A stretch of 61,692 nt of DNA from a virus (taxonomy: Duplodnaviria > Caudoviricetes). Positions 4,201-45,830 of the stretch are shown piece by piece. The stretch is taken from IMG/VR virus record IMGVR_UViG_3300007734_000739, positions 1 through 61,692 of that record, one strand, 5' to 3'. Made by a program: the position numbers and the translations under genes. Numbering within the stretch: the first letter of the stretch is position 1; the number at the start of each line of letters is the position of its first letter. Below the pieces are notes generated by a model, which saw only the letters and a list, made by a program, of their open reading frames with translations, ran no database searches and was not told where the DNA came from.

Positions 4201-4613
4201 CTCAAGAAGCTGCTGCTGCCAAGGCAGCTGAAGAAAGAGCGGCTGCCGAAAAAGCTGCTGCCGAAAAAGCTGCTGCTGCTGAGAAAGCCGCCGCAGCCAA
4301 AGCTGCTGCCGATAAATTAGCTTATCAAAAATCTTTAAAACAACAGGCTTACGCAAACAACATAATGATGAACATGGCGGCAAATGCGCCAAGTGGTAAC
4401 GTTACCACGGCTGCGCCTCCGCCTGTTGTTGAGGGCGCTCCTATATTTGATATAGCGGCCCCGCTAGATATTGGGTTTTTCAACCAACCACAAAACCCCA
4501 CACAAGATCAGCCCGGCGTAGTTAAAATTGCTGAAGGCGGGTATATGAACTATTTGTTTCCACCTGAAGAAGTCAGCATGGATGAAATCTTAAAAATTTT
4601 AGAAGGAAGATAG
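1200..4613 (+). CDS. large repeat-rich putative internal virion/ejection protein
   Basis: 1137 aa; Gly/Ala-rich hydrophobic N-terminus, about 46-aa and 44-aa repeats, dockerin/EF-hand-like DVTGDKKVTQED, C-terminal IAEGG; lies after tail nozzle. Confidence 0.65.
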   Translation: MGLFKALKWVASKATQAVTYVAKKIEDVATTVVNTVSNILKDPKAVAILAINVMAPGAGSAIGASLGLSGTMATFVGNTVLNTALNGGDINAAAKSAALALGGQAVADKVVSNLSDGAISAATKQIVGGTVSNATMAAIQGQDPVEAIKRGGVLAGVNLITSNIDGFATLPVPAQNALKTTLSASLQGKDATTSIVYGAIADGLQAYKNVSDANVATQKELGRDLTEDEAKKFALYTSAGSLSSDIKNLVVGEKTAQAIENGNTSFTYNGNPVSVTSTDLNNYFKNKLTAAGLTPTADDINAATAAYGKSKDATSATNAIVDARTVDAQEVKDIFAKEGITNLTPQQIEQYVKSNVDETTALADIQKQADESYTTRQEVLDAFKGTGYTPTDADIARFEGEKPETVQTNAVNSYADPLVTDLDEAKDFLKSVLGREPTDSEASKFVAPKSEQEQKETIGLYGDIVKAFEQEKNEPSSSTELAKLAEIISEPGVVLRLPDGRVLIDTGKAKDYGEGATLPLIRVIADKSDTENLNIPTFEETQYDVLQAIQKQNPTVKADELVTDAFNAMQEKGYTPSVEDLINVITQTKDKTKASVTKAASDYGDQKVVTKDEARQRLIDNGIAKPTDAQINQFVKKGNQADVFKEIDTYANPLATTAAEAEQMLKDAGISNPTKEQIAMFTKEGSQTDTQQALLKYIDPFVVTRAEAEAALEKAGVTNPTQAQIDLFAKEGNQTDIFDELNKYGTLATATQQQYNELSAADKKLADSLVAQGKTLGDSIAAVKAGLGTQISDLATTTQKQYDTLTAAQKAEVDARVKQGQDLQKSITDVQSGLGTQITNLAKTTQDQYNSLSAAQKAEVNARVKAGESTDKAIATVQTNISNLDKRISELVTQGQDYQTATKNAINELSQKNADLSSLIGTGKKNVTQADIDFMTQIVSGKAAGDARYDVTGDKKVTQEDIDYLSKYLGTGTGTDTFKPGMGTYWAPTGLYGELYGNQLAQEAAAAKAAEERAAAEKAAAEKAAAAEKAAAAKAAADKLAYQKSLKQQAYANNIMMNMAANAPSGNVTTAAPPPVVEGAPIFDIAAPLDIGFFNQPQNPTQDQPGVVKIAEGGYMNYLFPPEEVSMDEILKILEGR

Positions 4614-4614
4614 C

Positions 4615-6603
4615 ATGTACGATGACCAAAATTTTAACTTTGATAACTACGGAGCGGATGTCATCCCTGATTCTGCCAATACAAGCTCTCCTTCAGACTT
4701 GAGTGATTACGACTATGGTGATCCTGATCTGCTTGTAAATAATGATACAAGTTCGTACTATGGTGACAATACATTTGAGTACCCCGGAAATCCTTACGGC
4801 GGTGAAACCACATACTACGGTACTGGTGAACTAACCGACGCAGAAAAAGCAGAGCTTGCAAAGCAGACCAACCCCAGCGTTAGACAATTTATTTCAGATA
4901 CTGTCAATAAATTAGGCGATAAAGCAGGCGCATTTCTTAAAAATTACCTTTACGATCCCAAGACAGGAAAGCTCAATCTTGCTGGTATTGTTACAGGCGT
5001 GACAGCTTTAAAGGCTTTGAGCGGTGGAGATACGCCTAAATCTACAGCGTATCAAGGGAAGATCCCTAATCTGACGGCTGTAACACAGGCCATCAATTAC
5101 CAAGACCCCAATCGCAGGCCGGGAGAAAGTGGCAGACGCTACTTTACTGGTACTCAATACGTCACCCCTGAAAATGTGGCGGCAGCCGAAAGCGCTTCTC
5201 AGGCAAAAGCCGCTGGCATTTTGTCTGGATATAAGCCTAAAGAAACCCCTGAAGTTAACCCATATGCTGGTACTTTTGCCATGAAATTTGCAACACCCAT
5301 GTCTGGTGCTGGTAACGTTACCACTTCTCCTGCTTCTGGAGTAAGAAGCCTCTTGCCTGTACCCGAAGCAAGTGCCACAATGAATGAAGGGTTTGCTGGA
5401 GGTGGAATGGCACAAGGCAGATATTTAAAAGGCGCAACTGACGGAATGGCTGATGAAATCCCATCTTCTATTGATGGCAAGCAAAAAGCCGCTCTGAGTC
5501 ATGGAGAGTTTGTTATTCCTGCCGATGTGGTGTCCCACTTGGGTAATGGCAATTCTGACGCTGGTGCCAAAAAACTATATGAAATGATGGCGCGGGTGCG
5601 TAAAGCTCGCACTGGAAACGCAGAACAAGGCAAGAAGATCAATCCAAACCAGTTTATGCCCGGCGGTCAAGTCGGATATGCTGCTGGTGGCATTGCCAAG
5701 TTTGCTGGAACAGATGGAAGTTTGGTTGGCTCAAGCGGCACCACAGGCCCAGCTACAACTGGCGTGAGCACGCCTGCAATACCAAAACAAGGCGAATCTG
5801 TAGCTACTAATTTATCAGGCTGGGCAGGCCCATATGTTTCTGATTACCTTGGTAAAGGGCAGGCACTGTCTAATATGCCGTATCAGGCGTACACAGGGCC
5901 ATTGACTGCTGGCCCCTCGCAATTACAACAGCAGCAATACGCTGGACTTAGCGATATTGCCAAAACTGGATACACCCCCGGACAATTTACGGGCGGCATT
6001 TTTGATACTGCTGCTGCACAGCAATACATGAATCCATACTTGTCAGCTGCGCTTGACCCTCAGTTAGCAGAGCTGCGTCGCCAAGGACAGATTACCAATC
6101 TTGGCAACCAAGCTCAAGCTACAAAGATGGGTGTGTTTGGTGGCTCAGGTTCTACCTTGATGCAGACAGAAACACAGCGCAATGTGCTGGACAAAATGCA
6201 ACAAGCTTTGGGTCAAGGCTATAACACTGCCTATGACAAAGCAATGGCGCAGTACAACGCTGACCAACAGCGCAGAATACAAGCCGCTCAGGATGAAGAA
6301 TCCTCAAGACAGTTTGGCGCTAACTTTGGACTCAAGACACTGCAAGACCTTGGCGCAGCAGGCGCTACACAAAGAGATATTGCGCAACAAGGCATTACTG
6401 CTGACAAGGCTCAATTTGAAGAAGAAAGAGATTTCCCGTACAAGCAAGTTCAATTCCAAAAATCTTTGCTTACAGGTCTTCCAATAACCACGACAGACAC
6501 AACGCCTATGCAAAGTGATATTTCAAAGATTTCTGCTCAAATTCAAGGGCTTGCATCTTTGTATCAATTGCTTGCAGGTTTGGGGCAAACTCAGCCGAAA
6601 TGA
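4615..6603 (+). CDS. putative internal virion (DNA ejection) protein
   Basis: 662 aa, Gly/Ala/Gln-rich, YMNPY motif and LSHGEFVIPADVV block typical of podovirus-like DNA transfer proteins. Confidence 0.65.
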   Translation: MYDDQNFNFDNYGADVIPDSANTSSPSDLSDYDYGDPDLLVNNDTSSYYGDNTFEYPGNPYGGETTYYGTGELTDAEKAELAKQTNPSVRQFISDTVNKLGDKAGAFLKNYLYDPKTGKLNLAGIVTGVTALKALSGGDTPKSTAYQGKIPNLTAVTQAINYQDPNRRPGESGRRYFTGTQYVTPENVAAAESASQAKAAGILSGYKPKETPEVNPYAGTFAMKFATPMSGAGNVTTSPASGVRSLLPVPEASATMNEGFAGGGMAQGRYLKGATDGMADEIPSSIDGKQKAALSHGEFVIPADVVSHLGNGNSDAGAKKLYEMMARVRKARTGNAEQGKKINPNQFMPGGQVGYAAGGIAKFAGTDGSLVGSSGTTGPATTGVSTPAIPKQGESVATNLSGWAGPYVSDYLGKGQALSNMPYQAYTGPLTAGPSQLQQQQYAGLSDIAKTGYTPGQFTGGIFDTAAAQQYMNPYLSAALDPQLAELRRQGQITNLGNQAQATKMGVFGGSGSTLMQTETQRNVLDKMQQALGQGYNTAYDKAMAQYNADQQRRIQAAQDEESSRQFGANFGLKTLQDLGAAGATQRDIAQQGITADKAQFEEERDFPYKQVQFQKSLLTGLPITTTDTTPMQSDISKISAQIQGLASLYQLLAGLGQTQPK

Positions 6604-6612
6604 AAGAAAATT

Positions 6613-8237: not shown

Positions 8238-11200
8238 ATGCCACGCAATATCACAGTCACTTTTGATGATGGGTCTTCCCATGTTTACCAAAATGCTCCT
8301 GATGACGTAACACCTGATGCGGTTGCATCTAGGGCAAAGAAGGAGTTTGGTAAAAACGTAACCGCTTTGGATGGTGGTAGAGCTGCACCTGCTGCTCCAG
8401 CCAAACCTCCTGAACGCACATACGGAGAAGCTGCGCAAGACGTAGCCGGAAAACTTATCTCTGGTACTGGTTCTTTGGTTCAGTTTCCGGGTCAGCTTTA
8501 TGGCTTGGCTACTGGAGATTTTTCCAAGACAGGTCTACTGGGTGCTGGTGAGGATATTCAGAAGTATGGTGAGTCTTTGCTGTCTCCTGCATTGAAGGCC
8601 AAAGAAGAGGCAAGAGCGCAGAAGATTCAAGAGGCTGAGAAGACTGGTCAGCTTGCCGCTGCTGGTACAGCATTTACCGAAACAGTAAAAGATCCTGCCC
8701 TGCTGGTTGGGTTCTTGGTTGAGCAAGTTCCTCAATTGATCCCTGCTTTGTTAACGGGTGGCGGTACTGCTGCGTTGACTGCTGCTGGTATTGCTTCCAA
8801 AGAAGCTGCTGCATTGGTTGCCAGTGGTGCAGCCAAGGAAGCCGCCCAGATTGCAGCCAAAGAGATTGCTGCCAAGAAAGCTGGTGAGCTTGGTGCCAAG
8901 GCTGCTGTTGGTATGGGTGCTGTACAGCAAGGCGCTGACGTTGGTGCCGGTGCGTATGAAGACATCTACAAAGCAGCAATTGCCAAAGGTATACCTGAAG
9001 CTGAAGCCGCTAAGACTGCACTGAATGCTGCACGGGCTGCTGGTGCATCTGGTGCCATCATTTCTCTGTTGGCTCAAAGACTGCCGGGCGCACGGACACT
9101 TGAAGAATCTTTTGCTGGAGTACCCGGCACGACAGGGCGTTTGTTGGGTGCCGGTAAAGGTTTGCTTGGCGAGTCTGTTGGTGAAGTCACCGAAGAGGGC
9201 GGCGGCAAGTTTACTCAGAACTTGGCGATGCGAGAAGTCAATCCTGAGCAGGATTTATTGGCAGGTGTTGGTCAAGCTGCTGGTATGGCTGCTATTGGTG
9301 GTGGCGGTATGGGTGCTATTGCTGGTGGTCTGCGCACTCCAGAAACAAAACCAGTTGAGCCGCCCGGCAAACCCAAAGTGGAAACGTTACCACCAGCGCC
9401 TGAAGTGCCTCCTGAAGCTCCGCCTACGGCTGCAAAACCTCCACCACCTCCGCCTGAGCCTAAGAAGGAATTTAAGCCAGCAGATGTTGAGGCTTTGGCT
9501 AACTACACCGAAGGCTTGCCTGAAGATGCAGCCGACGTATTCCAGCGCTTACAGAACAGAGACAGGGCTACTCCCGCCTCTATTCAACAGATGCAAGGTA
9601 TCGCATCCAATCCTGACTATGATCGCCTGAAGACCTCTCCTGACTTTGGGTCTGGTGCGCCTGTGGTCATCAGCGACATCAAGATTCCTGACAGCCAAAT
9701 GGGACGGCAAGATATTGTCACTGCTTCAGACGGCAGAAAGATTCCTGTCCAGTATGCAGTTGTGGATGCTGGGGATTTGATGCCGTCTCACACGGCAAGC
9801 GGTCAGACAAACACCGAATATGGAAACGTTACCACTCCTGCGATCAGACCCGTGGCTGGTAATGGACGGGTGGCTGGGTTACAGGCCGCCTACAACCTTG
9901 ATGCAGCAAGCGACTATCGAGCAGCGTTGCAACTTGATACTCAGCACGGGGTAGACCAAGGTGCAATATTGGATATGGAACGACCTGTACTGGTCAGGAT
10001 CATGCCCAAGTCTTATGTCACGCCTGACATTGGTGATGTGTCCAATGTGGCTGGGCAGTTGCGCTTAAACCCTGTTGAAGCGGCAAAGAATGATGTCAAC
10101 CGCTTTGACTTAGAGGGCTTGCAGTTTAATGAAGACGGTGGCATCAACGCCAACTCTGTCATTCAGTTTATTCGTGCCATGCCCAAAGAAGAGCAGGGTG
10201 AACTGATTGATAAGAATGGTGCGCCAAATGCCATTGCTTTTGATCGACTGAACAATGCTGTGTTTTACAAGGCATATGGCAGCGACAGTTTGATTGACCT
10301 GTACGCACAAGCCGCTGACCCAGAAGCAAAGCTGATCTTGCAAGGCTTGGCTAAGGCTGCGCCCAGTGTTTCTCAGTTGGAAGGTGCAGGCGAATACGAC
10401 ATCAGACCAAACATTGTTGAGGCTGCTGAGTTGGCGGTCAATGCTCGTAGACAAGGTATCAAGCTCAAGGATTTTGTTGACCAAGGTCAGCTTGGCGTTG
10501 ATCCCAACACAATAGCTGTGCTGGAAATGTTTGCTGAACATGGACGTTCTGGTAAGCGCATGGGTGAATTGCTCAGTAACTTGGCAGACAAAGCTTACGA
10601 CCAAGCTCAAGCCGGTGAGGATATGTTTGGTGAAAAACCAAAACTTCCGTTGGCTGATGTGTTTAAAGCACTGAAGCCAGAAGCTGCGCCCGATCTATTT
10701 ACAGAACCACCCAAGTTGCCAGAAGTCCCAGAGCCAAAAGACTTTGTAGCCAAGAAGTCAATGGAAGAGATTGCCAAAGAAATCAAAGGCATGACTGCCA
10801 CTGAACTTTCTCAATGGGCTGTTGACAATGCGCCTAACAGTGCAGCCAAAGCAATTGCTGAAAAGGTTTTGATTCGCATCAAAGAGTTGGATGCAAGGAA
10901 TTTCTTTGACAAACCTGTTGAAGTGTTAAACAGGGACAACCTTACCTATCGCGGTAGATTTACTTATGCGCTTAACTTTAGCTACGGCAGATTGAAATTT
11001 GCTGGATTAAAGAACGGCAAAGCACATAGCGGCACAGGCACAAGATACATCACCATTTTGCATGAGCTGCTGCATGCGGCGACTGTTCCGGCATTAAGCA
11101 CCCGTGGCAAAGACTACAACGATTTGACAGTTGTTCTTAACAAAGTTAAGAAACAAATTAATGAAGATCAGAAGGCAGGCAAGACACACCCAGTTTTTGA

Positions 11201-14200
11201 CAAGATTAAACGTGGGGCAAACACAATTCAGAATGTCAAGGAACTGATTTCTTGGGGTTTGACCGATCCAGAGTTTCAGGATTATTTGAGCAAGGTAAAG
11301 GTTGGCGAAACCAATGCGTTGAATCGCATGGTTGAAATCTTCAGAAAGTTTCTTGGCTTGGATGTTAAGTATCAAACTGCTTTGGATGCGGTGGTTAAGA
11401 CAACTGACAATATCTTAGAAACACCCACAGAGACAATTGAAAAAGGTATTGGTCGCGGCATTGGAACCAAGAAGGTTGCGCCTGCTGCGCCTGCTGCGCC
11501 TGCAACAAAACCTGCTGCGCCCACAACGACTAAGCCTGCCGCTAAAGCTGCTCCGCCCAAGTTAACTGCGCCTGCTGGATTTAAATTAAAAGAAGGTCGC
11601 AACGAACAGGTTGTGTTGGCGGCAAGAGAGTTGGCTGCTGGAAGAATTACCAAGCAACAGTATGATGAGTATGTAAATTACTACACTCCCATCGGAGAAA
11701 TACTTGGCGACAAGTTAGAAGCTCCAATTAATGATGATTTAATGCGGTTAATCTTGGTAAACAAGATTCCTCAGAAAAAAGATCCAAAGCTTGTTAATGC
11801 TTCTGTTGCAGACGGCACAAAAGTTGGTTTGCGAATGGACATCCCTGCGTTGGAATGGGGAAGAGATAACGGCGTTAATGGTAGCGTAGTGTCCATCCAC
11901 GAAGGGAAACCCGCAACCAATGCAGCGGCTGGAAAGAATATCAGCTACAAGTCTGCTGGCGTTTTAAAGAATGCGGTGTTTGCCATTCGCTCTGAAGAGA
12001 AAGCGTTTGGCGTTGCTCAAATGAAAGAAGGTCGCGCAGGACAAAAAACACCGCAGCAGACCATTGAAGGTACTTGGGTCAACATGACTCCAGAGGAAAT
12101 CTTTAAGTCTGTTAAGGAAAAACTCAATGATCCAGAGTGGTCACAAGTCAGTCTTGATCCATTGCGTCACTCATATTTCTATGACAGAAAAACAAAGCAG
12201 CCTGTTGTCTCTGCCGATGAAGTGCTGCAAGTAGGTCGCTTTGTCTTGGCAAAGAACGTCAAGTATGCGCCTAGAGAAGAGTTTCTTTATGAGGATGTAG
12301 GTAAAGAACAAGCCGAAGAAGAAAGCGTAGGCGACAAACTAAAAGCCAAAGCCTCTGCTGCACTGCAAAAGCGCAAACCATTGGCACCAGAAAGTTTCCA
12401 AGGCGTTTCTCCTGACTTCCTTGACAAAGCAAATCCTATCTTTGCTCCTCAGAAGAAGACAATCATTGAACGTCTTGAGGATATGAAAGACCGTTTCTGG
12501 CAGCGCCTTGCCCAAGGTATTGCTGACCAGTTCCGCACCATCAAAGAATACAGTGAGCAGGCATACATACTTGCTCGTATGTCAAAGACTGTGGACGGCG
12601 CGCTAGAAGGCCTGATGTTCTATGGTCAAGTCTTTAACGACGGCGGTGCTTTGAATATCAAGCAAGGCACAAAAGGATTGATTGAAATCTTGAAGCCGTT
12701 GGGTAATGAAGTTGACCGTTACCAAATGTGGATTGCTTTGAATCGTGAATCAGAGTTGCCACCCAACAAGCGGTCACAGATAGATAACTTGGAAGAGCTG
12801 GTGCAGCGCAGAAATGAGCTGATTGCTGGTGACATAGATGGTAAGCCCCGTGAGCAGGTTTACAAAGCTGTGCGCACAGAGATGAACAAGCTCAACCGAT
12901 CTGTGCTGAAAGTTGCGTTGGATGCCGGACTGATCGACTCTACGGCAAATGCCATCGACAGACTGAACGCCAGAATCCAAGACACCTTGAACAACGACAA
13001 GCTGTCTGATGCCAAGAAAGATGAGCAGATTGCTGATCTTGAGGCGCAGATTGAAGAGCTACAGAAAAACCCAATTGGCTATGAGCGTTTTATTGCCGAC
13101 ATCAATTACATCCCGTTCTATCGTGAGATGGAAGATGGTGATGTTTCCAAGGTAATGACATCGACTGGTCTGTCGAATCAGCATTTCTCCAAAGCGCTTG
13201 AAGGTGGTGTCAGCCCCTTTGCGGATCTGATGGAAAACACTTTGCGTAACTGGAGTCACATCCTGTCTGCGTCTATGAAGAATCAGGCTGCTGCCGCTAC
13301 GCTGACCGCTGCTGAGAAATTGGGTGGCGCAGAGCCAAACCTCAAAGTGCCGTACTACATGATTGACGGCAAGGTCTACACCCGTGCAAACGATGAGATG
13401 GTGGGCGATGGGTCTGTCAAATCTTGGATGACCACGCAGGGTAAAGGCACAGTCAAGGTAATGGTTGAAGGTCAGCCTGTGTACTACAACGTGCTTGATC
13501 CTTTGCTGCTAGATGCCATCACTTCTATTGGTTACTTGGGGCCAAAGTCTAAGTTCTTGGATGTGGCAAGAGACTTTAAGAATGTCCTCCAGTTTGGCGT
13601 GACCATTTCACCTGCGTTCAAGGTGCGTAACTTGTTCCGTGATTCCATCTCTGCGATGGCTGTCAGTGACCTAAAAAAGAATCCGTTTGCCAACGTGGTT
13701 GAAGGTTGGGCGCTGAGTGATAAGGACAATCCTGCACACATCTCAGCATTGGCTGGCGGTGCGGTGTTTAACTTTGGCTCCATCGTTGAGGGAGATCAAG
13801 CCAAGTTGGTCAGGCGCTTAATCAAGATGGGCGTGAAAGAAGAGCATATTCTGGACACACCTGAGAAGATCAAAGATCAGCTCAAGAAAGCCTTTGACAA
13901 GTATCAGGATTGGGGCAACAAGTCTGAAGCAGCCAACCGCTTGGCTTTGTATCAGCAGTTGATAAACAAAGGCTACGGGCATTTGGAAGCCTCCTACTAT
14001 GCCAGAGACTTGCTGGACTTCTCTATGCAGGGATCATGGCCTGCCTTCCGTCTGCTGACGCAGGTTGTGCCGTTCTTGAATGCCCGTGTACAGGGTCTGT
14101 ACAAGCTGGGTAAGGACGGCATCAATCCTACTGTGCGGGTGTTCTACAACTCCATCACAGGTAAGCCGATTGAGCAGACTGATAAACAGAAAGCCGAGTC

Positions 14201-15155
14201 CTTTGGAATCGTTACCAGCGCTGTGTGCCTTGCATCCTTAGCCTTGTACTTTGCCTTCAAGGACGATGACGAGTTTAAGAAGCGGGATGAATGGGATCGG
14301 GATAACTTCTGGTGGTTCAAGCTGCCCGGCATGGACTATGCGCTGCGCATTCCCAAGCCGTTTGAGATTGGCGCATTTGGCACATTGGCTGAACGCACTG
14401 CCGAGCAGATCTTTGACAAGGGCGCAGAAGGTAAGCAGTTTGAGCAGTCTTTGGGTCGCATGATTACAGACACCTTTGCGTTTAACCTGCCGCAGTTTAT
14501 GAAGCCGCTGGTGGACTTGTATGCCAATAAGGATTCATTCACTGGTGCGCCTATTGAATCTGCTGGCATGGAGCGTTTATCCAAGCAAGAACGTGCGACA
14601 GACACCACCAGCCCCTTGGCTATTGCCTTGGGTGGATTGAGCAGCATAGGCCCCGGAGAAGGCCTGTCTCCTGTGCAGGTGGACTATGCCATCAAAGCCT
14701 ACTTTGGATGGCTTGGCGGCACCATTGCTGAGGCATCACACTATGCTGTCATGCCGTTCAAACAGGGCGCATATCCTGACACCAAGTGGGTAGACAAGGT
14801 GAGCGTTGGATTCATCAAGTCGCTGCCTGCCAACCAGTCCAAGTATGCAACCGCCTTCTATGAGAACAACAAAGAAATCAGTCAGGCATACGCTGACATG
14901 CGGCACTACGCTGAGATTGGGGATTCCGACAAGGTGTTGAAAATCTTGGAAGAGAAGAAGGACAAGATTGCCCTGTCCAAGTTCTACGACAAGACCGCCA
15001 AGAGCATGGCTAAGGTCAGGCTGCAAATCCGTGTGATTATGAATGACACTACGATGAGTGGCGCTGCCAAGCGAGAAGAGATTGACCGATTAAAAGAGAT
15101 CATCTCCATGCTGGCACAACAGGCCGAGGACACACGCAAAGCTTACGGGAAATAG
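8238..15155 (+). CDS. large polyvalent ejection protein: DdrB-like ParB domain, zincin-like HExxH domain, LPD38-like C-terminus
   Basis: 2305 aa; LQNRDRATPAS...VAGNGR (ParB-like), ILHELLH, C-terminal WDRDNFWWF...IPKPFEIG. Confidence 0.8.
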   Translation: MPRNITVTFDDGSSHVYQNAPDDVTPDAVASRAKKEFGKNVTALDGGRAAPAAPAKPPERTYGEAAQDVAGKLISGTGSLVQFPGQLYGLATGDFSKTGLLGAGEDIQKYGESLLSPALKAKEEARAQKIQEAEKTGQLAAAGTAFTETVKDPALLVGFLVEQVPQLIPALLTGGGTAALTAAGIASKEAAALVASGAAKEAAQIAAKEIAAKKAGELGAKAAVGMGAVQQGADVGAGAYEDIYKAAIAKGIPEAEAAKTALNAARAAGASGAIISLLAQRLPGARTLEESFAGVPGTTGRLLGAGKGLLGESVGEVTEEGGGKFTQNLAMREVNPEQDLLAGVGQAAGMAAIGGGGMGAIAGGLRTPETKPVEPPGKPKVETLPPAPEVPPEAPPTAAKPPPPPPEPKKEFKPADVEALANYTEGLPEDAADVFQRLQNRDRATPASIQQMQGIASNPDYDRLKTSPDFGSGAPVVISDIKIPDSQMGRQDIVTASDGRKIPVQYAVVDAGDLMPSHTASGQTNTEYGNVTTPAIRPVAGNGRVAGLQAAYNLDAASDYRAALQLDTQHGVDQGAILDMERPVLVRIMPKSYVTPDIGDVSNVAGQLRLNPVEAAKNDVNRFDLEGLQFNEDGGINANSVIQFIRAMPKEEQGELIDKNGAPNAIAFDRLNNAVFYKAYGSDSLIDLYAQAADPEAKLILQGLAKAAPSVSQLEGAGEYDIRPNIVEAAELAVNARRQGIKLKDFVDQGQLGVDPNTIAVLEMFAEHGRSGKRMGELLSNLADKAYDQAQAGEDMFGEKPKLPLADVFKALKPEAAPDLFTEPPKLPEVPEPKDFVAKKSMEEIAKEIKGMTATELSQWAVDNAPNSAAKAIAEKVLIRIKELDARNFFDKPVEVLNRDNLTYRGRFTYALNFSYGRLKFAGLKNGKAHSGTGTRYITILHELLHAATVPALSTRGKDYNDLTVVLNKVKKQINEDQKAGKTHPVFDKIKRGANTIQNVKELISWGLTDPEFQDYLSKVKVGETNALNRMVEIFRKFLGLDVKYQTALDAVVKTTDNILETPTETIEKGIGRGIGTKKVAPAAPAAPATKPAAPTTTKPAAKAAPPKLTAPAGFKLKEGRNEQVVLAARELAAGRITKQQYDEYVNYYTPIGEILGDKLEAPINDDLMRLILVNKIPQKKDPKLVNASVADGTKVGLRMDIPALEWGRDNGVNGSVVSIHEGKPATNAAAGKNISYKSAGVLKNAVFAIRSEEKAFGVAQMKEGRAGQKTPQQTIEGTWVNMTPEEIFKSVKEKLNDPEWSQVSLDPLRHSYFYDRKTKQPVVSADEVLQVGRFVLAKNVKYAPREEFLYEDVGKEQAEEESVGDKLKAKASAALQKRKPLAPESFQGVSPDFLDKANPIFAPQKKTIIERLEDMKDRFWQRLAQGIADQFRTIKEYSEQAYILARMSKTVDGALEGLMFYGQVFNDGGALNIKQGTKGLIEILKPLGNEVDRYQMWIALNRESELPPNKRSQIDNLEELVQRRNELIAGDIDGKPREQVYKAVRTEMNKLNRSVLKVALDAGLIDSTANAIDRLNARIQDTLNNDKLSDAKKDEQIADLEAQIEELQKNPIGYERFIADINYIPFYREMEDGDVSKVMTSTGLSNQHFSKALEGGVSPFADLMENTLRNWSHILSASMKNQAAAATLTAAEKLGGAEPNLKVPYYMIDGKVYTRANDEMVGDGSVKSWMTTQGKGTVKVMVEGQPVYYNVLDPLLLDAITSIGYLGPKSKFLDVARDFKNVLQFGVTISPAFKVRNLFRDSISAMAVSDLKKNPFANVVEGWALSDKDNPAHISALAGGAVFNFGSIVEGDQAKLVRRLIKMGVKEEHILDTPEKIKDQLKKAFDKYQDWGNKSEAANRLALYQQLINKGYGHLEASYYARDLLDFSMQGSWPAFRLLTQVVPFLNARVQGLYKLGKDGINPTVRVFYNSITGKPIEQTDKQKAESFGIVTSAVCLASLALYFAFKDDDEFKKRDEWDRDNFWWFKLPGMDYALRIPKPFEIGAFGTLAERTAEQIFDKGAEGKQFEQSLGRMITDTFAFNLPQFMKPLVDLYANKDSFTGAPIESAGMERLSKQERATDTTSPLAIALGGLSSIGPGEGLSPVQVDYAIKAYFGWLGGTIAEASHYAVMPFKQGAYPDTKWVDKVSVGFIKSLPANQSKYATAFYENNKEISQAYADMRHYAEIGDSDKVLKILEEKKDKIALSKFYDKTAKSMAKVRLQIRVIMNDTTMSGAAKREEIDRLKEIISMLAQQAEDTRKAYGK

Positions 15156-15169
15156 TGGTAACGTTTCCA
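15156..15169. promoter_or_regulatory. TGGWAACGTTWCCA palindrome filling the gap between convergent stop codons
   Basis: TAG-TGGTAACGTTTCCA-CTA; one of 12 exact copies. Confidence 0.75.
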
Positions 15170-16009
15170 CTAATCTCCGCAAAAACAAGACAAGCCTTCT
15201 TCGTTTGGGTCGAATAGGTTTGTCTGTGCTTGCGAGTAGGTAAGCATAGACGCATATCCCGGCCTGTCAGTTCGGAACTTATCGCCATCCTTAATCTTTG
15301 GGATATCAATGGATGATTCCATTTTTGCCCACCAAGTAGCCCTGCTTGGTTTTTCTGCAATCAAAGAAAATATTTGTGACGCACCTTTGAGAAAACAAAG
15401 ATCACAGTTTCCGTGATAGGTAATGCCGTTGATATTTGGCAAGCCCAAGTCAAACGGCTGCTCGCGCCAAAACTTACCTACATCTTCTTTGGTTATTCCA
15501 TCTTGAGCAAGCGGCATATATCTTGTTACGCCTTTTCTCCCGTCAGATGGATTGGCTCTGATCTTTGCCACCCGCCGCTGTTCATCCGCCCTGATTCCAA
15601 TAAGGTTGTCCCACTCAGTCCAACCAATTCCTTTTAGGTATCTTTCAAAGGTTAAGATTTTTAAATCGACAGTGCAAAACCTAGCGATGGGATTTGGCAA
15701 ATAATTCTTTTTCTTGATGAGCGCCTCAAACGGCTCCCCGTTTCTACTGGCTGTTTCGTATGTCACCACCTCGTATGGTGGTTCAGCATCACGATATTCC
15801 AGCCAAACTATTGGAACATTCCAATTGGTTTCGCAATCATGGACAAACTTCAGTGTGGCCTCATCCTCTTTGCCTGTATTGGCAAACATGACCACGGCCT
15901 CCTCTGGTAATCCATTGTTTTCTTGAAGCACACGCCAAAGCAAATAAGCTGATGTCCTGCCGCCGCTAAACGAAATGCAAGTTGGCGCATCTATTTTGTA
16001 TGGATTCAT
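15170..16009 (-). CDS. PAPS reductase (CysH-like) family protein
   Basis: PP-loop ISFSGGRTS, FANTGKE, RFCTVDLK, GIRADE, GNCDLCF, terminal CFCGD. Confidence 0.88.
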   Translation of the reverse strand: MNPYKIDAPTCISFSGGRTSAYLLWRVLQENNGLPEEAVVMFANTGKEDEATLKFVHDCETNWNVPIVWLEYRDAEPPYEVVTYETASRNGEPFEALIKKKNYLPNPIARFCTVDLKILTFERYLKGIGWTEWDNLIGIRADEQRRVAKIRANPSDGRKGVTRYMPLAQDGITKEDVGKFWREQPFDLGLPNINGITYHGNCDLCFLKGASQIFSLIAEKPSRATWWAKMESSIDIPKIKDGDKFRTDRPGYASMLTYSQAQTNLFDPNEEGLSCFCGD

Positions 16010-16269
16010 TGAGCGTCCAAAAGCCTTTCGATGGTTATGTTTAGAGCATCAAGCTCATTCATTTTCTTGATCTTCCACATCCGTTTTTGTCCATGCCAGC
16101 CCATCATGGAACCTTGGTGGCAGTCTTTACACAGAGCAACCACGCAATACTGAAGTGACTGTTCTATGTGGTGAGCATCTGATGGGGCAGGCGCATCACA
16201 GACAGAGCAAGGGAGCATCTTTACTCTGCCTATGTGAGCCTTTTGTTTAGCGGATAGATTGTTGTTCAA
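16006..16269 (-). CDS. small Zn-binding HNH-type nuclease (Ref/DUF968-like)
   Basis: LPCSVC...DAHHI...ALCKDCHQG...GWHG. Confidence 0.7.
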   Translation of the reverse strand: MNNNLSAKQKAHIGRVKMLPCSVCDAPAPSDAHHIEQSLQYCVVALCKDCHQGSMMGWHGQKRMWKIKKMNELDALNITIERLLDAQ

Positions 16270-16634: not shown

Positions 16635-16825
16635 AATCTTTTCTCCCTTTCTTTCATCATGGCCTCCGCCCTGTTGAAGGCATACTCTGCTGCTATTTCG
16701 TGTGGTTGAGTAGAAGCCATCACAGCAAAGGCTGCGTACCAGTCAAGCATTGTGATTTCTTGGATGGACACAGGCTCAGGCTTTGGAACAAGGGCTTCAA
16801 TGCCCTCAGACTTTTTTCGCACCAT
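16631..16825 (-). CDS. hypothetical protein
   Basis: 64 aa; ITMLDWYAAFA resembles neighbour. Confidence 0.6.
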   Translation of the reverse strand: MVRKKSEGIEALVPKPEPVSIQEITMLDWYAAFAVMASTQPHEIAAEYAFNRAEAMMKEREKRL

Positions 16826-28146: not shown

Positions 28147-28156
28147 GGTGTTCTCC

Positions 28157-30221: not shown

Positions 30222-30232
30222 GATGGTTCTCC

Positions 30233-34737: not shown

Positions 34738-34849
34738 CCCCCCCATGCAAAATCTAAACAAGCCCCCCCGGGGTAGCAAAAAAATTTTTAATGCAAAGAT
34801 GATTCCTCGGCAGGGGGATATGACGTATGAGGAGTGTTTGGAGAAAAAG

Positions 34850-35074
34850 ATGAGTCCAGCGCAGAATGAAGTTTTTTTGGTGATAGATGAGTGGTGGAAG
34901 AAGTACCACTATGCACCGACCTTGCGGGATATTGCGTATATCCGTGGAAAGATGGGACTGGCAAATACGAAGAGATTGGTGGATAGGCTGGTGGATTTGG
35001 GAGTGGTAAAGAAAATAGAGAAGAGAGGTAGGACGGTCAGACCCGTCTACATTAAGTTCAGAGATTTGGAGTAA
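34850..35074 (+). CDS. LexA-like winged-helix DNA-binding domain protein (no peptidase domain)
   Basis: MSPAQNEVFLVI..WW...YAPTLRDIA...LVDLGV...GRTVRP; GGAG RBS. Confidence 0.75.
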   Translation: MSPAQNEVFLVIDEWWKKYHYAPTLRDIAYIRGKMGLANTKRLVDRLVDLGVVKKIEKRGRTVRPVYIKFRDLE

Positions 35075-35168
35075 GAAATCTGTAAGGTGGTAACGTTACC
35101 ACTTTACACGAAACTTACAGTAAGGAAACAGTAAGGTGGAAACGTTACCAGTTTACGTGAAACTTACA
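35071..35168. repeat. two imperfect 49-bp tandem units, each with the TGGWAACGTTWCCA palindrome
   Basis: units 35071-35119 and 35120-35168; cores at 35088 and 35137. Confidence 0.9.
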
Positions 35169-35181
35169 ATAGAAAGAGACT

Positions 35182-36672
35182 ATGAAACTTGAGGAATTGA
35201 TAGATAAATTAGAACCGCATGAGTATGAGAAGTTCATGGCTCAGGTGATGGAGTATCGTGGGGCGGTGGAGAGGGAGAGGGCGCAGGACAAGTTTATGGA
35301 GTATGTGAAGATGATGTGGCCCGGATTTGTGAGTGGGCGGCATCATGCTTTGATGGCGAAGAAGTTTGAGGATATTGCGAATGGGAAGATAAAGAGGGCG
35401 ATTATCAATATGCCGCCTCGACATACGAAGAGTGAGTTTGCGTCTTATCTTTTGCCGAGTTGGTTTCTTGGCAAGTTTCCGAATAAGAAGGTGATCCAGT
35501 GTTCGAACACGGCGGAACTAGCTGTTGGGTTTGGACGTAAGGTCAGGAACTTGGTGGGGAGTGAACAGTACGCGAAGGTATTTCCGAATGTCGCTTTGAG
35601 ACAGGACAGTAAGGCAGCTGGCAGATGGGCTACGAATGGCGGGGGTGAGTATTTTGCGATTGGTGTTGGGGGTACTGTTACGGGTAAGGGTGCTGATCTA
35701 TTGATTATTGATGACCCGCATTCAGAACAAGAAGCTGCTTTGGCGGCTGGGGATCCGAGTGTTTACGATAAGGTATATGAGTGGTATACGTCTGGCCCAC
35801 GGCAACGTTTACAGCCGGGTGGATCTATTGTGATTGTGATGACTCGTTGGGGAGACAGGGATCTAACGGGTAGAGTGATTAAGGATGCAGCAGGCAGAGA
35901 TAAGGGTGAAGAGTGGGAGATTATTGAATTGCCTGCTATCATGCCGTCGGGGAATCCTTTGTGGCCTGAGTTTTGGAGTATTGATGAGCTGACTGCTTTA
36001 AAGGAGGAGTTGCCACCTGCTAAGTGGAACGCTCAATACCAGCAGAGTCCGACTGGCGAAGAGGGTGCGATTGTGAAGCGGGAGTGGTGGAAGCGGTGGA
36101 CGAAAGAGGATCCACCTCCATGTCAGTTCATTATTCAGAGTTGGGACACGGCGTTTACGAAGAGTGAGAGAAGTGACTATTCTGCGTGTACGACTTGGGG
36201 GGTTTTTTATTTGAATGAGAACCCAGAGGATGCGAATGTTATTTTGTTGGATGCGTTTAAGAAGCGGATGGAGTTTCCTGAGTTGAAGGAAAAGGCGCAT
36301 CAGAATTATTTGTACTGGGAGCCTGATGCTTTTGTGATTGAGGCGAAAGCGGCGGGTAGTCCGTTGATATTTGAATTGAGACAGATGGGCATTGTGGTGA
36401 GTGAATATACGCCGAGCCGTGGAAATGATAAGTTTGTGAGGATCAATTCAGTTGCTGATTTATTTAGTTCAGGTAAAGTGTGGGCACCAGAAACTCGCTG
36501 GGCTGATGAATTGATCGAAGAGATGGCAGCGTTTCCTAATGCGCCGAATGATGACTTGGTGGATTCCTCCACGCAGGCGTTGATTAGATTTCGCAAAGGT
36601 GGCTTTTTGAGACTTGCATCTGATGAGAGAGAAGAGCTTAAAAGCTTTCGCAGAAAACAATCTTACTATTGA
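35182..36672 (+). CDS. terL: terminase large subunit
   Basis: INMPPRHTKS Walker A, LLIIDDP Walker B, SWDTA, IEAKAAG, DDLVD. Confidence 0.95.
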   Translation: MKLEELIDKLEPHEYEKFMAQVMEYRGAVERERAQDKFMEYVKMMWPGFVSGRHHALMAKKFEDIANGKIKRAIINMPPRHTKSEFASYLLPSWFLGKFPNKKVIQCSNTAELAVGFGRKVRNLVGSEQYAKVFPNVALRQDSKAAGRWATNGGGEYFAIGVGGTVTGKGADLLIIDDPHSEQEAALAAGDPSVYDKVYEWYTSGPRQRLQPGGSIVIVMTRWGDRDLTGRVIKDAAGRDKGEEWEIIELPAIMPSGNPLWPEFWSIDELTALKEELPPAKWNAQYQQSPTGEEGAIVKREWWKRWTKEDPPPCQFIIQSWDTAFTKSERSDYSACTTWGVFYLNENPEDANVILLDAFKKRMEFPELKEKAHQNYLYWEPDAFVIEAKAAGSPLIFELRQMGIVVSEYTPSRGNDKFVRINSVADLFSSGKVWAPETRWADELIEEMAAFPNAPNDDLVDSSTQALIRFRKGGFLRLASDEREELKSFRRKQSYY

Positions 36673-36679
36673 GGATTAA

Positions 36680-39082
36680 ATGGACATTGCAAAATCACTT
36701 TATGCCGCGCCCCAAGGTCTTGAGTCTTTAGCGGAACCTGACTTGGAAATTGAAATTGAAAATCCTGATGCTGTATCTATTGGCATGGGTGGAGTTGAAA
36801 TTACCCTAGAGCCTGAGCGCGAAGGCAAAGAAGGTGAGCAGTTTGATTCCAATCTCGCTGAGTTCATGGATGAAGGCGAGTTAGAAAAAGTTGGCGCTGA
36901 CATTATGGATATGGTCGAAGCCGACATCAATTCGCGTAAGGATTGGGTAGAGATGTTTGTCAAAGGATTGGAAGTCCTTGGCATGAAGTATGAAGAGAGA
37001 ACCGAGCCGTGGAACGGAGCTTGTGGTGTTTTCTCTACGATACTGACAGAGGCTGCTGTAAGATTCCAATCAGAAATGATTGTGGAAACGTTTCCAGCAG
37101 CGGGGCCGGTGAAGACGGAAATCATTGGTGCCATCAATAAATTAAAAGAGGATGCAGCTGAACGTGTCAGAGATGACATGAACTATCAGTTGACAGAGGC
37201 GATGCCTGAGTACAGACCAGAGCATGAGAGGATGCTCTTTAATTTGGGTCTGGCGGGATCAGCTTTTAAGAAAGTGTATTTTGATCCAGCGCTGGGTAGA
37301 CAGACCTCTATATATATACCAGCAGAGGATGTGATTATTCCTTACGGCTCAAGCGGGGCGAGAACAGCAGAGCGTGTAACTCATGTGATGCGCAAGACGA
37401 AAAATGATGTTCGTAAATTGCAGGCCGCAGGTTTTTATTGTGATGTAGATTTGGGTGAGCCGGTTGCTATACATACTGATGTAGAAAAGAAGAAGGCCGA
37501 AGAGCAAGGCTACTCTTTGACTGACGATGATCGGTATCAGATTTACGAAGTACAGATTGATTACGACTTGCCCGGCTATGAAGATGAAGACGAGATAGCC
37601 CTGCCGTATATCGTGTCGATTGACGCTGGCACAGGGAAAGTTTTATCTATCTATCGTAACTACGAAGAAGAAGATCCGATGCGTCTGAAGCGACAGCATA
37701 TGGTTCAGTATGACTATGTGCCGGGTTTTGGTGCTTATGGATTTGGCTACATACATTTGATTGGCGGGTATGCAAGGGCAGGCACTTCACTAATTCGTCA
37801 GTTGATTGATGCGGGTACTTTGAGTAACTTGCCCGGCGGCTTGAAGTCACGTGGTTTACGAGTGAAAGGTGACGATACGCCTATCTCTCCCGGAGAGTTC
37901 AGAGATGTGGATGTACCCAGTGGGTCTATCAAAGACAACATCATGGCACTTCCATATAAGGAGCCGAGCCAAGTATTGGCTGGGTTGCTGGATAAGATCA
38001 CGGAAGAGGGCAGAAGACTGGGTTCTATTGCTGACATGAAAGTCAGTGACATGAGTGCGAATGCGCCTGTTGGAACAACGCTGGCTATTCTTGAGCGACA
38101 GTTAAAAACGATGTCTGCTGTGCAAGCGCGAGTTCACTTTTCGATGAAGCAGGAATTCAAAATCCTGAAGAACATCATTCGTGACTATGCTCCTAAAGAG
38201 TATGAATACGATCCTGAAAAGGGTGATCGTAAGGCCAAGCAAGAAGACTACGACATGGTGGAAGTTATTCCAGTGTCGGATCCGAACAGCGCAACGATGG
38301 CGCAGCGGATCATGCAGTACCAAGCTGTTATCCAGTTGGCTCAACAAGCTCCGCAGATTTACAACTTGCCTCAATTGCATCGTCAGATGATTGAAGTTTT
38401 GGGTGTGAAGAATGCTGATAAGTTGGTGCCAACAAAAGACGATCAGCAGCCGAGAGATCCGATCAGCGAGAACATGGCGTTCTTGCGAGGCGAGCCGACA
38501 AAGGCTTTCATTTATCAGGATCAAGATGCGCACATTCAGGCGCACCAATCGTTTATGCAGGATCCAAAGATTGCCGCAGTGATTGGTCAAAATCCTATGG
38601 CGCAGCAAATGCAGGCTGCAATCATGGCGCACATTGCAGAACACTTGGCATTCAAATATCGCAAGGATGTGGAAGAGCAAGTCGGTGTACCGCTGCCTAA
38701 CCCAGATGCAGAGTTACCAGAAGATGTTGAAGTTCAGTTGTCTCGTTTGGTGGCGCAGGGTTCACAGCAGTTGATGCAAAAGAACATGGCTGAAGCACAG
38801 CAAGAGCAGGCACAACAAATGCAGCAAGATCCGTTGATTCAGATTCAGCAAGCAGAGCTGCAAGTCAAGCAAGCTGATGTGCAACGCAAAACACAAAAAG
38901 ACCAGACGGATGCGCAGATTGCAATGCAGAAATTGCAGTTGGAGAAGCAGCGTATTGAGGCGGAGATTACCAAAGAGTCGCAACGTCTTCAGTCTCAAGA
39001 GTTGCAGGCAAAAGCAAGAATCCAAGCTGATATGACTATGCGTCAATTGGAATCGTTAACAAGACCAAAGAAGGTTGAATGA
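36680..39082 (+). CDS. portal protein
   Basis: 800 aa directly after terL; C-terminal Q-rich coiled coil as in P22-like portals. Confidence 0.85.
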   Translation: MDIAKSLYAAPQGLESLAEPDLEIEIENPDAVSIGMGGVEITLEPEREGKEGEQFDSNLAEFMDEGELEKVGADIMDMVEADINSRKDWVEMFVKGLEVLGMKYEERTEPWNGACGVFSTILTEAAVRFQSEMIVETFPAAGPVKTEIIGAINKLKEDAAERVRDDMNYQLTEAMPEYRPEHERMLFNLGLAGSAFKKVYFDPALGRQTSIYIPAEDVIIPYGSSGARTAERVTHVMRKTKNDVRKLQAAGFYCDVDLGEPVAIHTDVEKKKAEEQGYSLTDDDRYQIYEVQIDYDLPGYEDEDEIALPYIVSIDAGTGKVLSIYRNYEEEDPMRLKRQHMVQYDYVPGFGAYGFGYIHLIGGYARAGTSLIRQLIDAGTLSNLPGGLKSRGLRVKGDDTPISPGEFRDVDVPSGSIKDNIMALPYKEPSQVLAGLLDKITEEGRRLGSIADMKVSDMSANAPVGTTLAILERQLKTMSAVQARVHFSMKQEFKILKNIIRDYAPKEYEYDPEKGDRKAKQEDYDMVEVIPVSDPNSATMAQRIMQYQAVIQLAQQAPQIYNLPQLHRQMIEVLGVKNADKLVPTKDDQQPRDPISENMAFLRGEPTKAFIYQDQDAHIQAHQSFMQDPKIAAVIGQNPMAQQMQAAIMAHIAEHLAFKYRKDVEEQVGVPLPNPDAELPEDVEVQLSRLVAQGSQQLMQKNMAEAQQEQAQQMQQDPLIQIQQAELQVKQADVQRKTQKDQTDAQIAMQKLQLEKQRIEAEITKESQRLQSQELQAKARIQADMTMRQLESLTRPKKVE

Positions 39083-44706: not shown

Positions 44707-44712
44707 ATAATT

Positions 44713-45240
44713 ATGGCACTCAGCGCATTTGAAAAAGAATTTAAAGCAGCCCGTGATGCGGGTAAAACAGAATTTGATTTTGGCGGCAAGAAGTACACCA
44801 CAAAATACAAAGAGGAGGCCGAAGCTTCTTCTAAGCCTGCTGCTAAAAAATCACAGTCAACCCCAAGAGAAGCGGCTATTGCAGAGGCTAATGATTTGAC
44901 TTCACCACCTCCAAAAAGAAGCGGTGGAATTGGCCCATACAACATAGGTGCTGGCCCAACCGAAGAAGAAAAACAAGCGGCTTATGATCGGTATGCTGAG
45001 AATCGTAAAAAAATGGGCGACTCAGGTAGCGATGACAGCGGCTCTAAACCTATTGCAGAATCTGACTGGGCAAAGAGTGTTCGTGCTGCGCAGGCGGCTA
45101 GTCCAGAGGGCGGCATGCTTGGTAAGCGTATGCGTGCGGCGCTTGGCTCTTCTTACAAAAAAGGTGGAAGCGTTTCCAGCGCCAGCAAACGTGCTGACGG
45201 CTGCGCCCAGCGCGGAAAAACGAAAGGCAGGATGATTTAA
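44713..45240 (+). CDS. small late protein with KKGG / RADG..RGKTKG motifs
   Basis: FEKEFKAAR..GK.EF.FGGKKYTT N-terminal module. Confidence 0.7.
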   Translation: MALSAFEKEFKAARDAGKTEFDFGGKKYTTKYKEEAEASSKPAAKKSQSTPREAAIAEANDLTSPPPKRSGGIGPYNIGAGPTEEEKQAAYDRYAENRKKMGDSGSDDSGSKPIAESDWAKSVRAAQAASPEGGMLGKRMRAALGSSYKKGGSVSSASKRADGCAQRGKTKGRMI

Positions 45241-45830
45241 TGCCTGCGACATCAGCAAAACAAAAGAAATTCATGGATGCTGCGGCGCACAACCCAGCGT
45301 TTGCGAAGAAGGTTGGCGTACCTGTAAAGGTTGCCAAAGAGTTCAGCAAGGCCAGCAAAGGTCAAACTTTTAAAGAAGGTGGCGAAATGAAAGAATCCAA
45401 AGGAATGACAAGAAAAGAAGTCAGCTTTATGAAGGCCAAGGGCGCACCAAAGTCTATGGTCAAGCATGAAGAAGCTGAAATGAAAGAAATGAAAAAGGGC
45501 GGCAAAGTCCAAAAATATGGTTTGGGTGGCATATTAAAAAATGTAGCAAGCCGAGTGGCTCCTGCTGTTAGGAGCGCAGCGGCAGAAACTATGGCAAAGC
45601 CTTCTGGCCCTGTAGGACCAGGCGGCTCATCCATGCCAAATGTTGGCCCTGTCTCAAGAGCTATTACTGGCGCAATGCGTCGCGGCATGGCTGCTGGTGG
45701 TAACGTTACCAAAATGGGCGCAGTAAAAACTGCCAAGCCTACCGCTGGTTCTGCATCCAGCCGTGCTGATGGTATTGCTCAAAAAGGCAAAACCAAAGGT
45801 AAGTTGCTCAACAAAGGCGGGAAGTGCTGA
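45240..45830 (+). CDS. basic late protein with five xxGG motifs
   Basis: FKEGG, MKKGG, YGLGG, MAAGG, LNKGG; RADGIAQKGKTKG. Confidence 0.7.
   Translation: MPATSAKQKKFMDAAAHNPAFAKKVGVPVKVAKEFSKASKGQTFKEGGEMKESKGMTRKEVSFMKAKGAPKSMVKHEEAEMKEMKKGGKVQKYGLGGILKNVASRVAPAVRSAAAETMAKPSGPVGPGGSSMPNVGPVSRAITGAMRRGMAAGGNVTKMGAVKTAKPTAGSASSRADGIAQKGKTKGKLLNKGGKC

Follow-up and report, generated by a model that had tools for sequence, protein, structure and literature searches.

A dispersed palindrome array in a freshwater phage genome and a ParB-like protein as its candidate binder

The stretch of DNA analysed here (IMG/VR record IMGVR_UViG_3300007734_000739, hereafter the window, or G000) is a complete phage record of 61,692 bp, rated 100% by CheckV and with 46.6% G+C. 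A 14-bp palindrome, TGGWAACGTTWCCA, recurs through it in 12 exact copies, inside genes and at gene junctions, and a gene at 24340-25134 encodes a protein of the ParB type. Our analyses revealed that the array is real, selected and family-wide, and that the orphan phage ParB-fold protein is most likely what binds it. The sequencing runs that hold the window sequence carry the labels freshwater, estuary, drinking-water and aquaculture, and a megablast search of GenBank phages with the window gave 0 matches.

The palindrome array and its conservation

The exact and one-mismatch copies are listed below. G001, G002, G003 and G014 are the relatives of the window genome used for the alignment of orthologous sites, W denotes A or T, and no strand is assigned to any site.

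4394-4407: exact site TGGTAACGTTACCA, within open reading frame (ORF) 1200-4613 (SGNVTT)
5310-5323: exact site, within ORF 4615-6603 (AGNVTT); orthologous place kept in G001
9379-9392: exact site, within the 2305-aa ORF (VETLP); kept in G001
9821-9834: exact site, within the 2305-aa ORF (YGNVTT); kept in G001 and G003, with a W flipped in G003
14204-14217: one-mismatch copy TGGAATCGTTACCA
15156-15169: exact site, filling the 14 bp between the convergent stops of the giant ORF (+) and the PAPS-reductase ORF (-); kept in G002, G014 and G003, with W flips
19872-19885: exact intergenic site, ending 2 nt before the ATG of ORF 19888-20175; kept in G001, G002 and G014
24804-24817: exact site, in the ParB-like gene (AGNVST, tip of a predicted hairpin/linker); kept in G002 and G014
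26665-26678: exact site, 5' part of the primase gene (WKRYH); kept in G002 and G014
30415-30428: one-mismatch copy TGGTAATGTTTCCA
35088-35101: exact site, between the winged-helix gene and the gene of the large terminase subunit (TerL); first of a pair, 80 nt before the TerL ATG
35137-35150: exact site, between the same two genes; second of the pair, 31 nt before the TerL ATG
37083-37096: exact site, portal gene (VETFP); kept in G001, one mismatch in G002, lost in G003
45165-45178: one-mismatch copy TGGAAGCGTTTCCA; the orthologous place is an exact site in G001
45698-45711: exact site, in ORF 45240-45830 (GGNVTK)
47028-47041: one-mismatch copy TGGAAACATTACCA

All 12 exact copies located by the initial annotation were verified, against 0 across 100 dinucleotide shuffles, and with up to two mismatches allowed the window holds 26 matches where 0.91 are expected. 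The degenerate copies that had been pointed out are likewise real, those at 14204, 30415 and 45165 with one mismatch and those at 20875, 34622 and 50327 with two; the copy at 47028, which had been overlooked, brings the one-mismatch copies to four. Eight exact copies do lie inside genes, in all three frames, as xGNV(T/S)x five times, VET(L/F)P twice and WKRYH once. The other four, described earlier as sitting at junctions, are intergenic (15156, 19872, 35088 and 35137). Codon-preserving shuffles hold a mean of 0.08 coding copies (maximum 2) against the 8 found, which upholds the proposal that selection acts on the DNA and not on the peptide.

The two W positions vary independently, being T/T in four copies, mixed in seven and A/A in one. 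Because of this independence, the unit fits a half-site, TGGWAAC, that would be read twice, as by a protein dimer, rather than a hairpin. Among the 12 sites, the 5' neighbour is G seven times and C four times, and the 3' neighbour C nine times and G twice; the G or C that had been remarked on as an extension of the motif thus stands at 11/12 5' and 11/12 3' positions.

When 400 bp round each window site were aligned to the four relatives, 21 places could be aligned. All 12 fixed letters are kept at 19 of these 21 orthologous places, within flanks that are just 70-90% identical, and 7 of the 19 kept sites differ at a W, the variation being confined to the two W positions. Because the fixed letters are kept within such flanks and solely the W letters flip, it is the DNA itself that purifying selection maintains at the sites, both in and between genes. 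Some sites are lineage-specific among the relatives. Of the 13 long records examined, three contain the motif, in 13, 11 and 6 copies, and the TerL of each is at least 89% identical. G014 holds 12 exact copies, or 15 with a shorter core, and the dispersed copies number 11-16 per genome in G001, G002, G014 and G015.

The absence of exact copies from 45711 round the record ends to 4394, as first reported, was verified. Because G001 carries sites in the tail region that matches this gap of ~20 kb, the gap is lineage-specific. The impression that copies fall near multiples of 5 kb held up poorly. The best Rayleigh period is 5.1-5.25 kb, with p = 0.04-0.12 in the window; p is ~0.05 in G001 and 0.03-0.09 in G002 for exact sites, and the periodicity is not significant in G014, G003, G015 and G010, nor in G002 with one-mismatch sites added. 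Gaps of 4-5.5 kb between sites are frequent, and a lattice of ~5 kb was dropped as a feature, its p values being marginal or null across the relatives.

The hexamer AACGTT is scarce outside the full motif, where 9 of its 21 occurrences lie, and codon-preserving shuffles hold ~23.5 in all. Partial sites may be avoided in this genome.

Motif turnover and the ParB-like protein

The genes on which the question of the binder turns are the following.

24340-25134, +: candidate binder, ParB-like protein of 264 aa, with a ParB/Srx-fold N-domain (DGFHR), a helix-turn-helix (HTH), a beta-hairpin and a C-terminal coiled coil
25127-26599, +: superfamily 2 (SF2; ResIII/DEAD) helicase; its start overlaps the ParB-like stop, and the synteny is kept across the family
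26599-27408, +: primase-like (Toprim) protein
34060-34737, +: small terminase subunit (TerS), weak matches
34667-35074, +: LexA-N-domain-like winged-helix (wHTH) protein, directly upstream of TerL throughout the family
35182-36672, +: TerL

Three DNA-binding candidates are conserved through the family, namely the ParB-like protein, TerS and the wHTH protein. For the ParB-like protein, the AlphaFold2 model (pLDDT 85) predicted HTH helices at residues 119-126 and 130-140, followed by a beta-hairpin and a long helix of coiled-coil type at 178-263, which would stand in place of the C-terminal clamp-closing domain. The protein is predicted to be a coiled-coil dimer. A profile of its family matched sulfiredoxin (5.8e-7) and Myxococcus xanthus ParB (7.8e-6) in the PDB, and a Foldseek search with the model matched ParB, Noc and KorB over 140-147 columns comprising the N-domain and the HTH (E 3e-7 to 1e-5). 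Pfam ParB_N was reached by 5 of 10 family members (best 4.1e-5), not by the window's own protein, and NCBIfam holds no name for it. The family counts 1879 proteins at E <= 1e-5, which bear automatic names only. Over 58 sequences, Q14 and R16, which match the nucleotide contacts of ParB Box I, are invariant, and N89, which matches that of Box III, is at least 90% conserved; these residues align with QPR and EN of M. xanthus ParB. G54 and R57, at the places of the Gly and the last Arg of Box II, are also invariant over the 58 sequences, and this box resembles the sulfiredoxin type.

The order ParB-helicase-primase is kept in all relatives, GenBank record MW202545 included, and the ParB-like gene heads the overlapping unit. 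A complex prediction for the ParB-like protein with the helicase returned a score of 0.00 and no verdict, and counts neither way.

For comparison across lineages, TerL relatives were collected in IMG/VR (599 of 600 candidate stretches confirmed, the best 80 kept), as were relatives of the ParB-like protein (196 of 595 candidates confirmed; 80 loci compared, together with five further whole records). The more distant relatives hold no copy of the window's word and have dispersed dyads of their own, far above shuffles: TGGCAACGTTGCCA 11 times in G015, TGGAAC-NN-GTTCCA 10 times in G010, a 22-bp dyad 7 times in G007 and a 20-bp dyad 6 times in G004, with weaker dyad sets in G017, G016, G006 and G019. 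Over the 80 ParB-like loci and the further whole records, the dyads enriched at a locus follow the clade of its ParB.

On the scale of single residues, V at position 2 of the recognition helix goes with W at base 4 in the window's clade, within the AACGTT-core group. At the same helix position, T goes with C at base 4 (G015, L134, L138, G019, L172 and L130) and P with T at base 4 (L131-133, L128 and L146/149), and a change from H to Y at helix position 1 accompanies a change from G to A at base 3 (L130). Residue and base rows are concordant in 12 of 12 cases in the ParB-ascertained set, a count that leaves out L144, L150, L147 and L139, whose calls are mixed, single or absent. In these sequence comparisons the association of motif and ParB is solid at the level of clades; a code of one residue for one base is not. 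The suggested co-variation of motif and ParB HTH is thus found between clades and breaks down between residues (L339, L394 and L144).

The initial annotation had also considered that the motif might be equally enriched in relatives without parB. Two cultured relatives, DSL-LC04 and 023Pt_psg01, have a TerL 57% identical, a different replication module and no match to the ParB-like protein, and neither has a dispersed dyad array in the 50 kb examined of each.

A number of observations weigh against the ParB-like protein as the reader of the sites. The covariation provides just 2-3 phylogenetically independent contrasts, with which a sign test is unable to reach significance, and covariation at the level of clades would be equally expected for any linked phage gene or host factor. 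L339 and L394 carry W-type sites with the helix SHTF, L321 (helix SHPF) has one A in four half-sites, and L144 and L172 mix two flank types. The ParB-bearing genomes G005, G012 and G013 are without sites detectable by our crude searches, those of G009 and G011 are weak, and bacterial prophage relatives of the protein (L233, L266 and others, at 37-39% identity) are without an array of AACGTT type. Box II reads DGFHRYFA and not GERRxRA, its first Arg being replaced by His and its catalytic Glu by Phe; because of the latter replacement, CTPase-clamp behaviour of the protein is uncertain. Three small conserved proteins (16806-17123, 17105-17530 and 17527-17835), for which searches of PDB, PHROG and Pfam gave nothing, remain candidate binders. 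Outside the phage family, the bacterial genomes G156, G433 and G200 hold 3-5 copies of the 14-mer clustered in 15-30 kb, and a P2-like prophage (tape measure, baseplate J) in G401 (L312-L313) has two exact and two one-mismatch copies ~75 bp upstream of tail genes. The prophage copies are the only exact ones in the 3.8-Mb G401, a genome without the window-type ParB family. Since the 14-mer clusters at LacI loci and in a prophage of a genome without this family, other proteins can use the word. The earlier nomination of the ParB HTH at 24340 is therefore sustained by the architecture of the protein, by the match between motif and ParB clades, by the failure of the LexA-like protein to track the motif and by the lack of an array in the two relatives without the gene, and is weakened by the exceptions to the residue code, by the change from GERR to DGFHR and by the rival claim of LacI.

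One position of the sites recurs across lineages. All genomes with TerL and a defined motif (11/11, representing 7 motif types) have one site or more in the 1.5 kb upstream of the TerL start, where 0.10-0.55 are expected per genome; elsewhere, site positions are not kept between motif lineages. As a rule the TerL-proximal site falls at the TerS/wHTH junction, at a distance of 273-389 nt from the ATG. One or more sites stand 273-389 nt or ~24 nt before the ATG in G003, G004, G007, G015, G016 and G017; the distance is 20-82 nt in the three genomes of the window's clade, 516 nt in G010 and 786 nt in G006. The pair found in the window's clade sits in an insertion of ~100 bp, made of two direct repeats of ~45 bp, that is absent in other lineages.

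This insertion in the wHTH-TerL spacer (window 35060-35181; L005-L011) is rich in GTAAG/CTTAC words, and in L007 the equivalent of site 35088 is extended to a perfect 26-bp palindrome. A description of G014 and G019 as mosaics without wHTH and TerL was rejected, their contigs breaking in the terminase region. G004 (9944-13018) and G006 (25007-30453) have clusters of small genes with an identical leader round the ribosome-binding site and start codon (GGAGACCATCCGATG in G004); these leader repeats are local and distinct from the dispersed dyads.

IMG/VR was also scanned for TGGTAACGTTACCA. Among the matches listed, 79 loci were examined, and genes of the window's phage family were found in 46 of them; of the loci with at least two sites, again among the matches listed, 15 of 16 carry such genes. 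L386, L381, L333 and L395 have early genes in common with the family despite a TerL just ~30% identical, which suggests that the array may travel with the early/replication module.

Function and alternative readings

We favour, at roughly even confidence, the reading that the palindromes are KorB-like operators of the orphan phage ParB-fold protein encoded at 24340-25134. A dimeric ParB-like protein would read one half-site TGGWAAC with each HTH, and the sites would serve as loading or binding points for the control or organisation of the whole phage genome, in the manner of KorB. The most conserved control point would be the one directly upstream of the terminase/late operon, and further control points would be the promoter-proximal junction at 19872 and the convergent operon boundary at 15156. 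We infer binding of the sites by the ParB-like protein, nucleotide binding and spreading by it, and a part in regulation rather than in partition or replication. Classical partition or lysogenic immunity is unlikely, because no ParA, integrase or LacI-type gene was found in six-frame searches of the phage genome; for ParA, the search with PF13614 covered the whole 61.7-kb record, giving nothing at E <= 0.01, and its control was positive in 14/14 genomes.

By analogy, the placements of the 19872, 15156 and TerL-upstream sites would fit use as operators or roadblocks. In the region of site 19872, the promoter-like sequence that matches best, by consensus only, has its -35 hexamer 32 bp away from the site.

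19811-19839, -: promoter-like TTGACA-17-TATATT, an 11/12 consensus match only, pointing into minus-strand recombination genes

The ORF that starts next to this site (19888-20175, +) encodes 95 aa, is endonuclease- or Holliday-junction-resolvase-like, and is the lone plus-strand gene within a minus-strand block; a strong terminator-like hairpin (20229-20250) comes after it. At the convergent boundary, the PAPS-reductase-like protein (15170-16009, -) covers just positions 154-411 of the 460 positions of PHROG 424, the N-terminal part of the profile being absent, and an 87-aa ORF of unknown family (16006-16269) lies directly upstream of its gene.

A wider version of the KorB-like reading is, in our estimate, unlikely. 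A virulent freshwater phage would tile its genome with loading sites for a ParA-less orphan ParB-fold clamp, which would spread over the whole chromosome and act genome-wide to switch or insulate the late/packaging operon, perhaps also to shield the DNA or counteract silencing, with a specificity re-tuned by lineage. Since the word of the window's clade equals what is very probably a bacterial LacI-type operator, the array may also read or titrate a host LacI repressor and so tie phage development to the carbohydrate state of the host.

That equality is the starting point of the alternative that survives best, which we regard as rather improbable: the sites would be operators of a host LacI-family repressor, and would, as roadblocks and operators, couple phage development to the host's carbohydrate state or, as a decoy, titrate the repressor after amplification of the phage DNA. 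The clustered loci of G156, G433 and G200 encode TonB-dependent receptors, a sugar ABC transporter (substrate-binding protein, permease and MalK-like ATPase) and a GH16 glycosidase, and each holds an orthologous LacI-family regulator with a near-identical HTH, TIKDVA(R/K)LAGVGLGTASRVVSG. Because the clusters adjoin orthologous LacI regulators in three genomes, the 14-mer appears to be the operator of this regulator there (L306-L311 and L314-L316), and the W positions vary in the bacterial loci as well. A central CG is typical of LacI-family operators, and the AACGTT-core variants of sister phages have it. However, the genomes G156, G433 and G200 have 63-66% G+C against 46.6% for the phage and are unlikely hosts. 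A single family of host repressors does not account for the dyads of the sister lineages G010, G007 and G004, in which a central CG is missing. The W preference is 16 A to 4 T at host loci and 64 T to 44 A in phages (five genomes), and the flanks are A/T at host sites but G...C at phage sites. The multi-site viral loci among the matches listed belong, in those 15 of 16 cases, to one phage family and not to assorted phages, and the phage itself encodes no LacI-type HTH (no PF00356 match in six frames). The possibility of a host-wide repeat, which had been flagged for checking, found no counterpart either: among 401 sampled Burkholderiales genomes the 14-mer occurs in 9, with a maximum of 5 copies, and 392 are without a copy, so that no genome-wide excess is seen.

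It is less probable, and we would give it little weight, that the ParB-like protein, bound to the sites, initiates replication or loads the helicase, in which case the sites would be dispersed origins or priming points for the co-transcribed SF2 helicase and primase. The overlap of the ParB-like stop with the helicase start, together with the kept order ParB-helicase-primase, would agree with this, as would the location of one site in the linker of the ParB-like gene and another in the 5' part of the primase gene, and no polymerase is among the 33 ORFs screened. The sites are, however, single and not clustered like iterons, the sequence flanking them shows no enrichment in A+T (50-52%, where the genome has 53%), and their positions change from one motif lineage to the next except near TerL.

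Similarly small is the chance that the sites belong to a packaging or late module, as pac-type sites or as late-operon operators bound by wHTH or TerS. The site found upstream of TerL in 11/11 genomes, and in the window the two sites 31 and 80 nt before TerL, speak for such a role, as do the wHTH gene abutting TerL throughout the family and the weak matches of its product to the LexA DNA-binding domain (PF01726 at 7.5e-5, below the cut-off, and TIGR00498 at 2.5e-4). The LexA-like protein, named in the initial annotation as an alternative binder, nevertheless does not track the motif across relatives. Three motif states, those of G007, of G009/G011 and of G012 (none), are found with a single wHTH recognition helix, GNVHR(V/I)VKKLC. 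L058 has 2 copies of the window's motif in 4.6 kb, yet its wHTH helix is nearly identical to that of G009/G011 and close to that of G007/G012, and none of these four genomes has a copy in its 40-64 kb. Between L058 and the window, TerS identity is only 39%. Moreover, most sites are conserved at places 5-25 kb away from the terminase genes, and a pac function needs no 12 dispersed copies: a pac or cos element would be a single locus at the terminase, and here 2 copies lie beside TerL and 10 others over 41 kb, conserved. The wHTH gene adjoins TerL in nearly the whole family (L005-L084), often with overlapping stop and start, and its product may have a role of its own as a factor for packaging specificity or for the late genes.

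Least of all do we credit a structural or restriction element (a hairpin, cruciform or terminator, or a methylase or restriction target kept for protection), since, although the motif is a perfect or near-perfect palindrome, reaching 26 bp in L007 at 35088, and AACGTT outside it is scarcer than in codon shuffles, the W positions are independent, 8/12 copies being imperfect palindromes exactly there, loop and T-tract are both absent, enrichment is the opposite of the avoidance normal for restriction targets, and no methyltransferase or restriction gene is among the 33 ORFs screened.

Two features of the record itself should be mentioned. A 164-bp terminal repeat (1-164 and 61529-61692) sits within an ORF crossing the record ends; because this ORF continues across them, the repeat probably reflects overlap in the assembly of a circular or permuted genome rather than a physical end. 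At 22335-23668, metagenome contigs of four runs pile up, with a summed word depth of up to ~9700 against tens elsewhere and with many joints and loose ends, and the small ORFs at 22639-23282 seem common to many other elements or hypervariable.

Comparison with known systems

Dispersed short sites are known from temperate phages. The L5 stoperators and the phiC31 conserved inverted repeats comprise tens of short sites, through which one phage protein silences genome-wide; stoperators are asymmetric, oriented and intergenic, and their binder is the immunity repressor of a temperate phage. The present array likewise has one short site dispersed through a phage genome. Its sites are palindromic, however, and 8 of the 12 are intragenic, no integrase was found in the six-frame search, and no repressor is among the 33 ORFs screened.

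The putative operators of the Burkholderiales LacI regulators are the same 14-mer with the same two degenerate positions, beside LacI regulators in 3/401 genomes. They differ in that only a few sites occur per 5-6-Mb genome, at sugar-gene promoters, and in their W preference and flanks; the recognition helix of the LacI protein, GVGLGTASRVV, is unrelated to GVSHVFVAKMR of the phage. Should the coincidence with a host LacI-type operator be functional, it would reveal a new route by which a phage senses or manipulates host metabolism.

Among chromosomal systems, the ParBs of M. xanthus and C. crescentus and Noc are the best structural matches of the phage protein (E 3e-7 to 3e-6), and parS and the Noc sites, the latter scattered over the genome, are palindromes of similar size. 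Unlike these proteins, the phage protein is without the catalytic Glu of the CTPase. According to a 2025 survey, phages and other mobile elements commonly carry orphan ParB-fold proteins, the functions and ligands of which are mostly unknown, and ParB folds may bind ATP or GTP in place of CTP (PMC12704722). The phage ParBs associated with 5mYOX, as described in PMC13229309, have no obvious DNA-binding domain and activate a thymine dioxygenase. They resemble the protein studied here as orphan phage ParB-fold proteins with a role other than segregation, whereas the latter has an HTH and no 2OG-oxygenase is among the 33 ORFs screened. Our literature searches, with supplementary files outside their scope (those of PMC12704722 may list the ParB-like family), found no description of the array.

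The present work pairs a large uncharacterised family of phage ParB-like proteins with candidate cognate sites and with a natural series of specificity variants, and makes binding, nucleotide choice and spreading directly testable questions. If the KorB-like reading is true, long-range control in the style of KorB extends from plasmids to lytic phages, and the family provides a compact system for the evolution of ParB-type HTH specificity.

The KorB operators of the IncP plasmid RK2, about a dozen copies on a replicon of ~60 kb, remain the most instructive comparison. Both systems would combine a ParB-fold N-domain and an HTH with a short dispersed palindrome, some copies of which lie at promoters and some far from them, and the KorB chains 8qa8 and 8qa9 are among the fold-search matches of the phage protein. 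KorB, a CTP-dependent sliding clamp of the ParB family, can reach promoters lying as far as 1.5 kb from its operators (PMC11790492). The differences are that the replicon here is a virulent-looking phage, with no ParA/IncC partner and no identified KorA-like lock, that the phage protein has DGFHR for GERR and a long coiled-coil C-terminus, and that 8/12 of the phage sites are in genes. KorB with its operators is therefore, by analogy, the closest counterpart: because Box II fails, no ParA is present and the C-terminus is a coiled coil, the phage protein would be one that works like KorB, not a member of its system.

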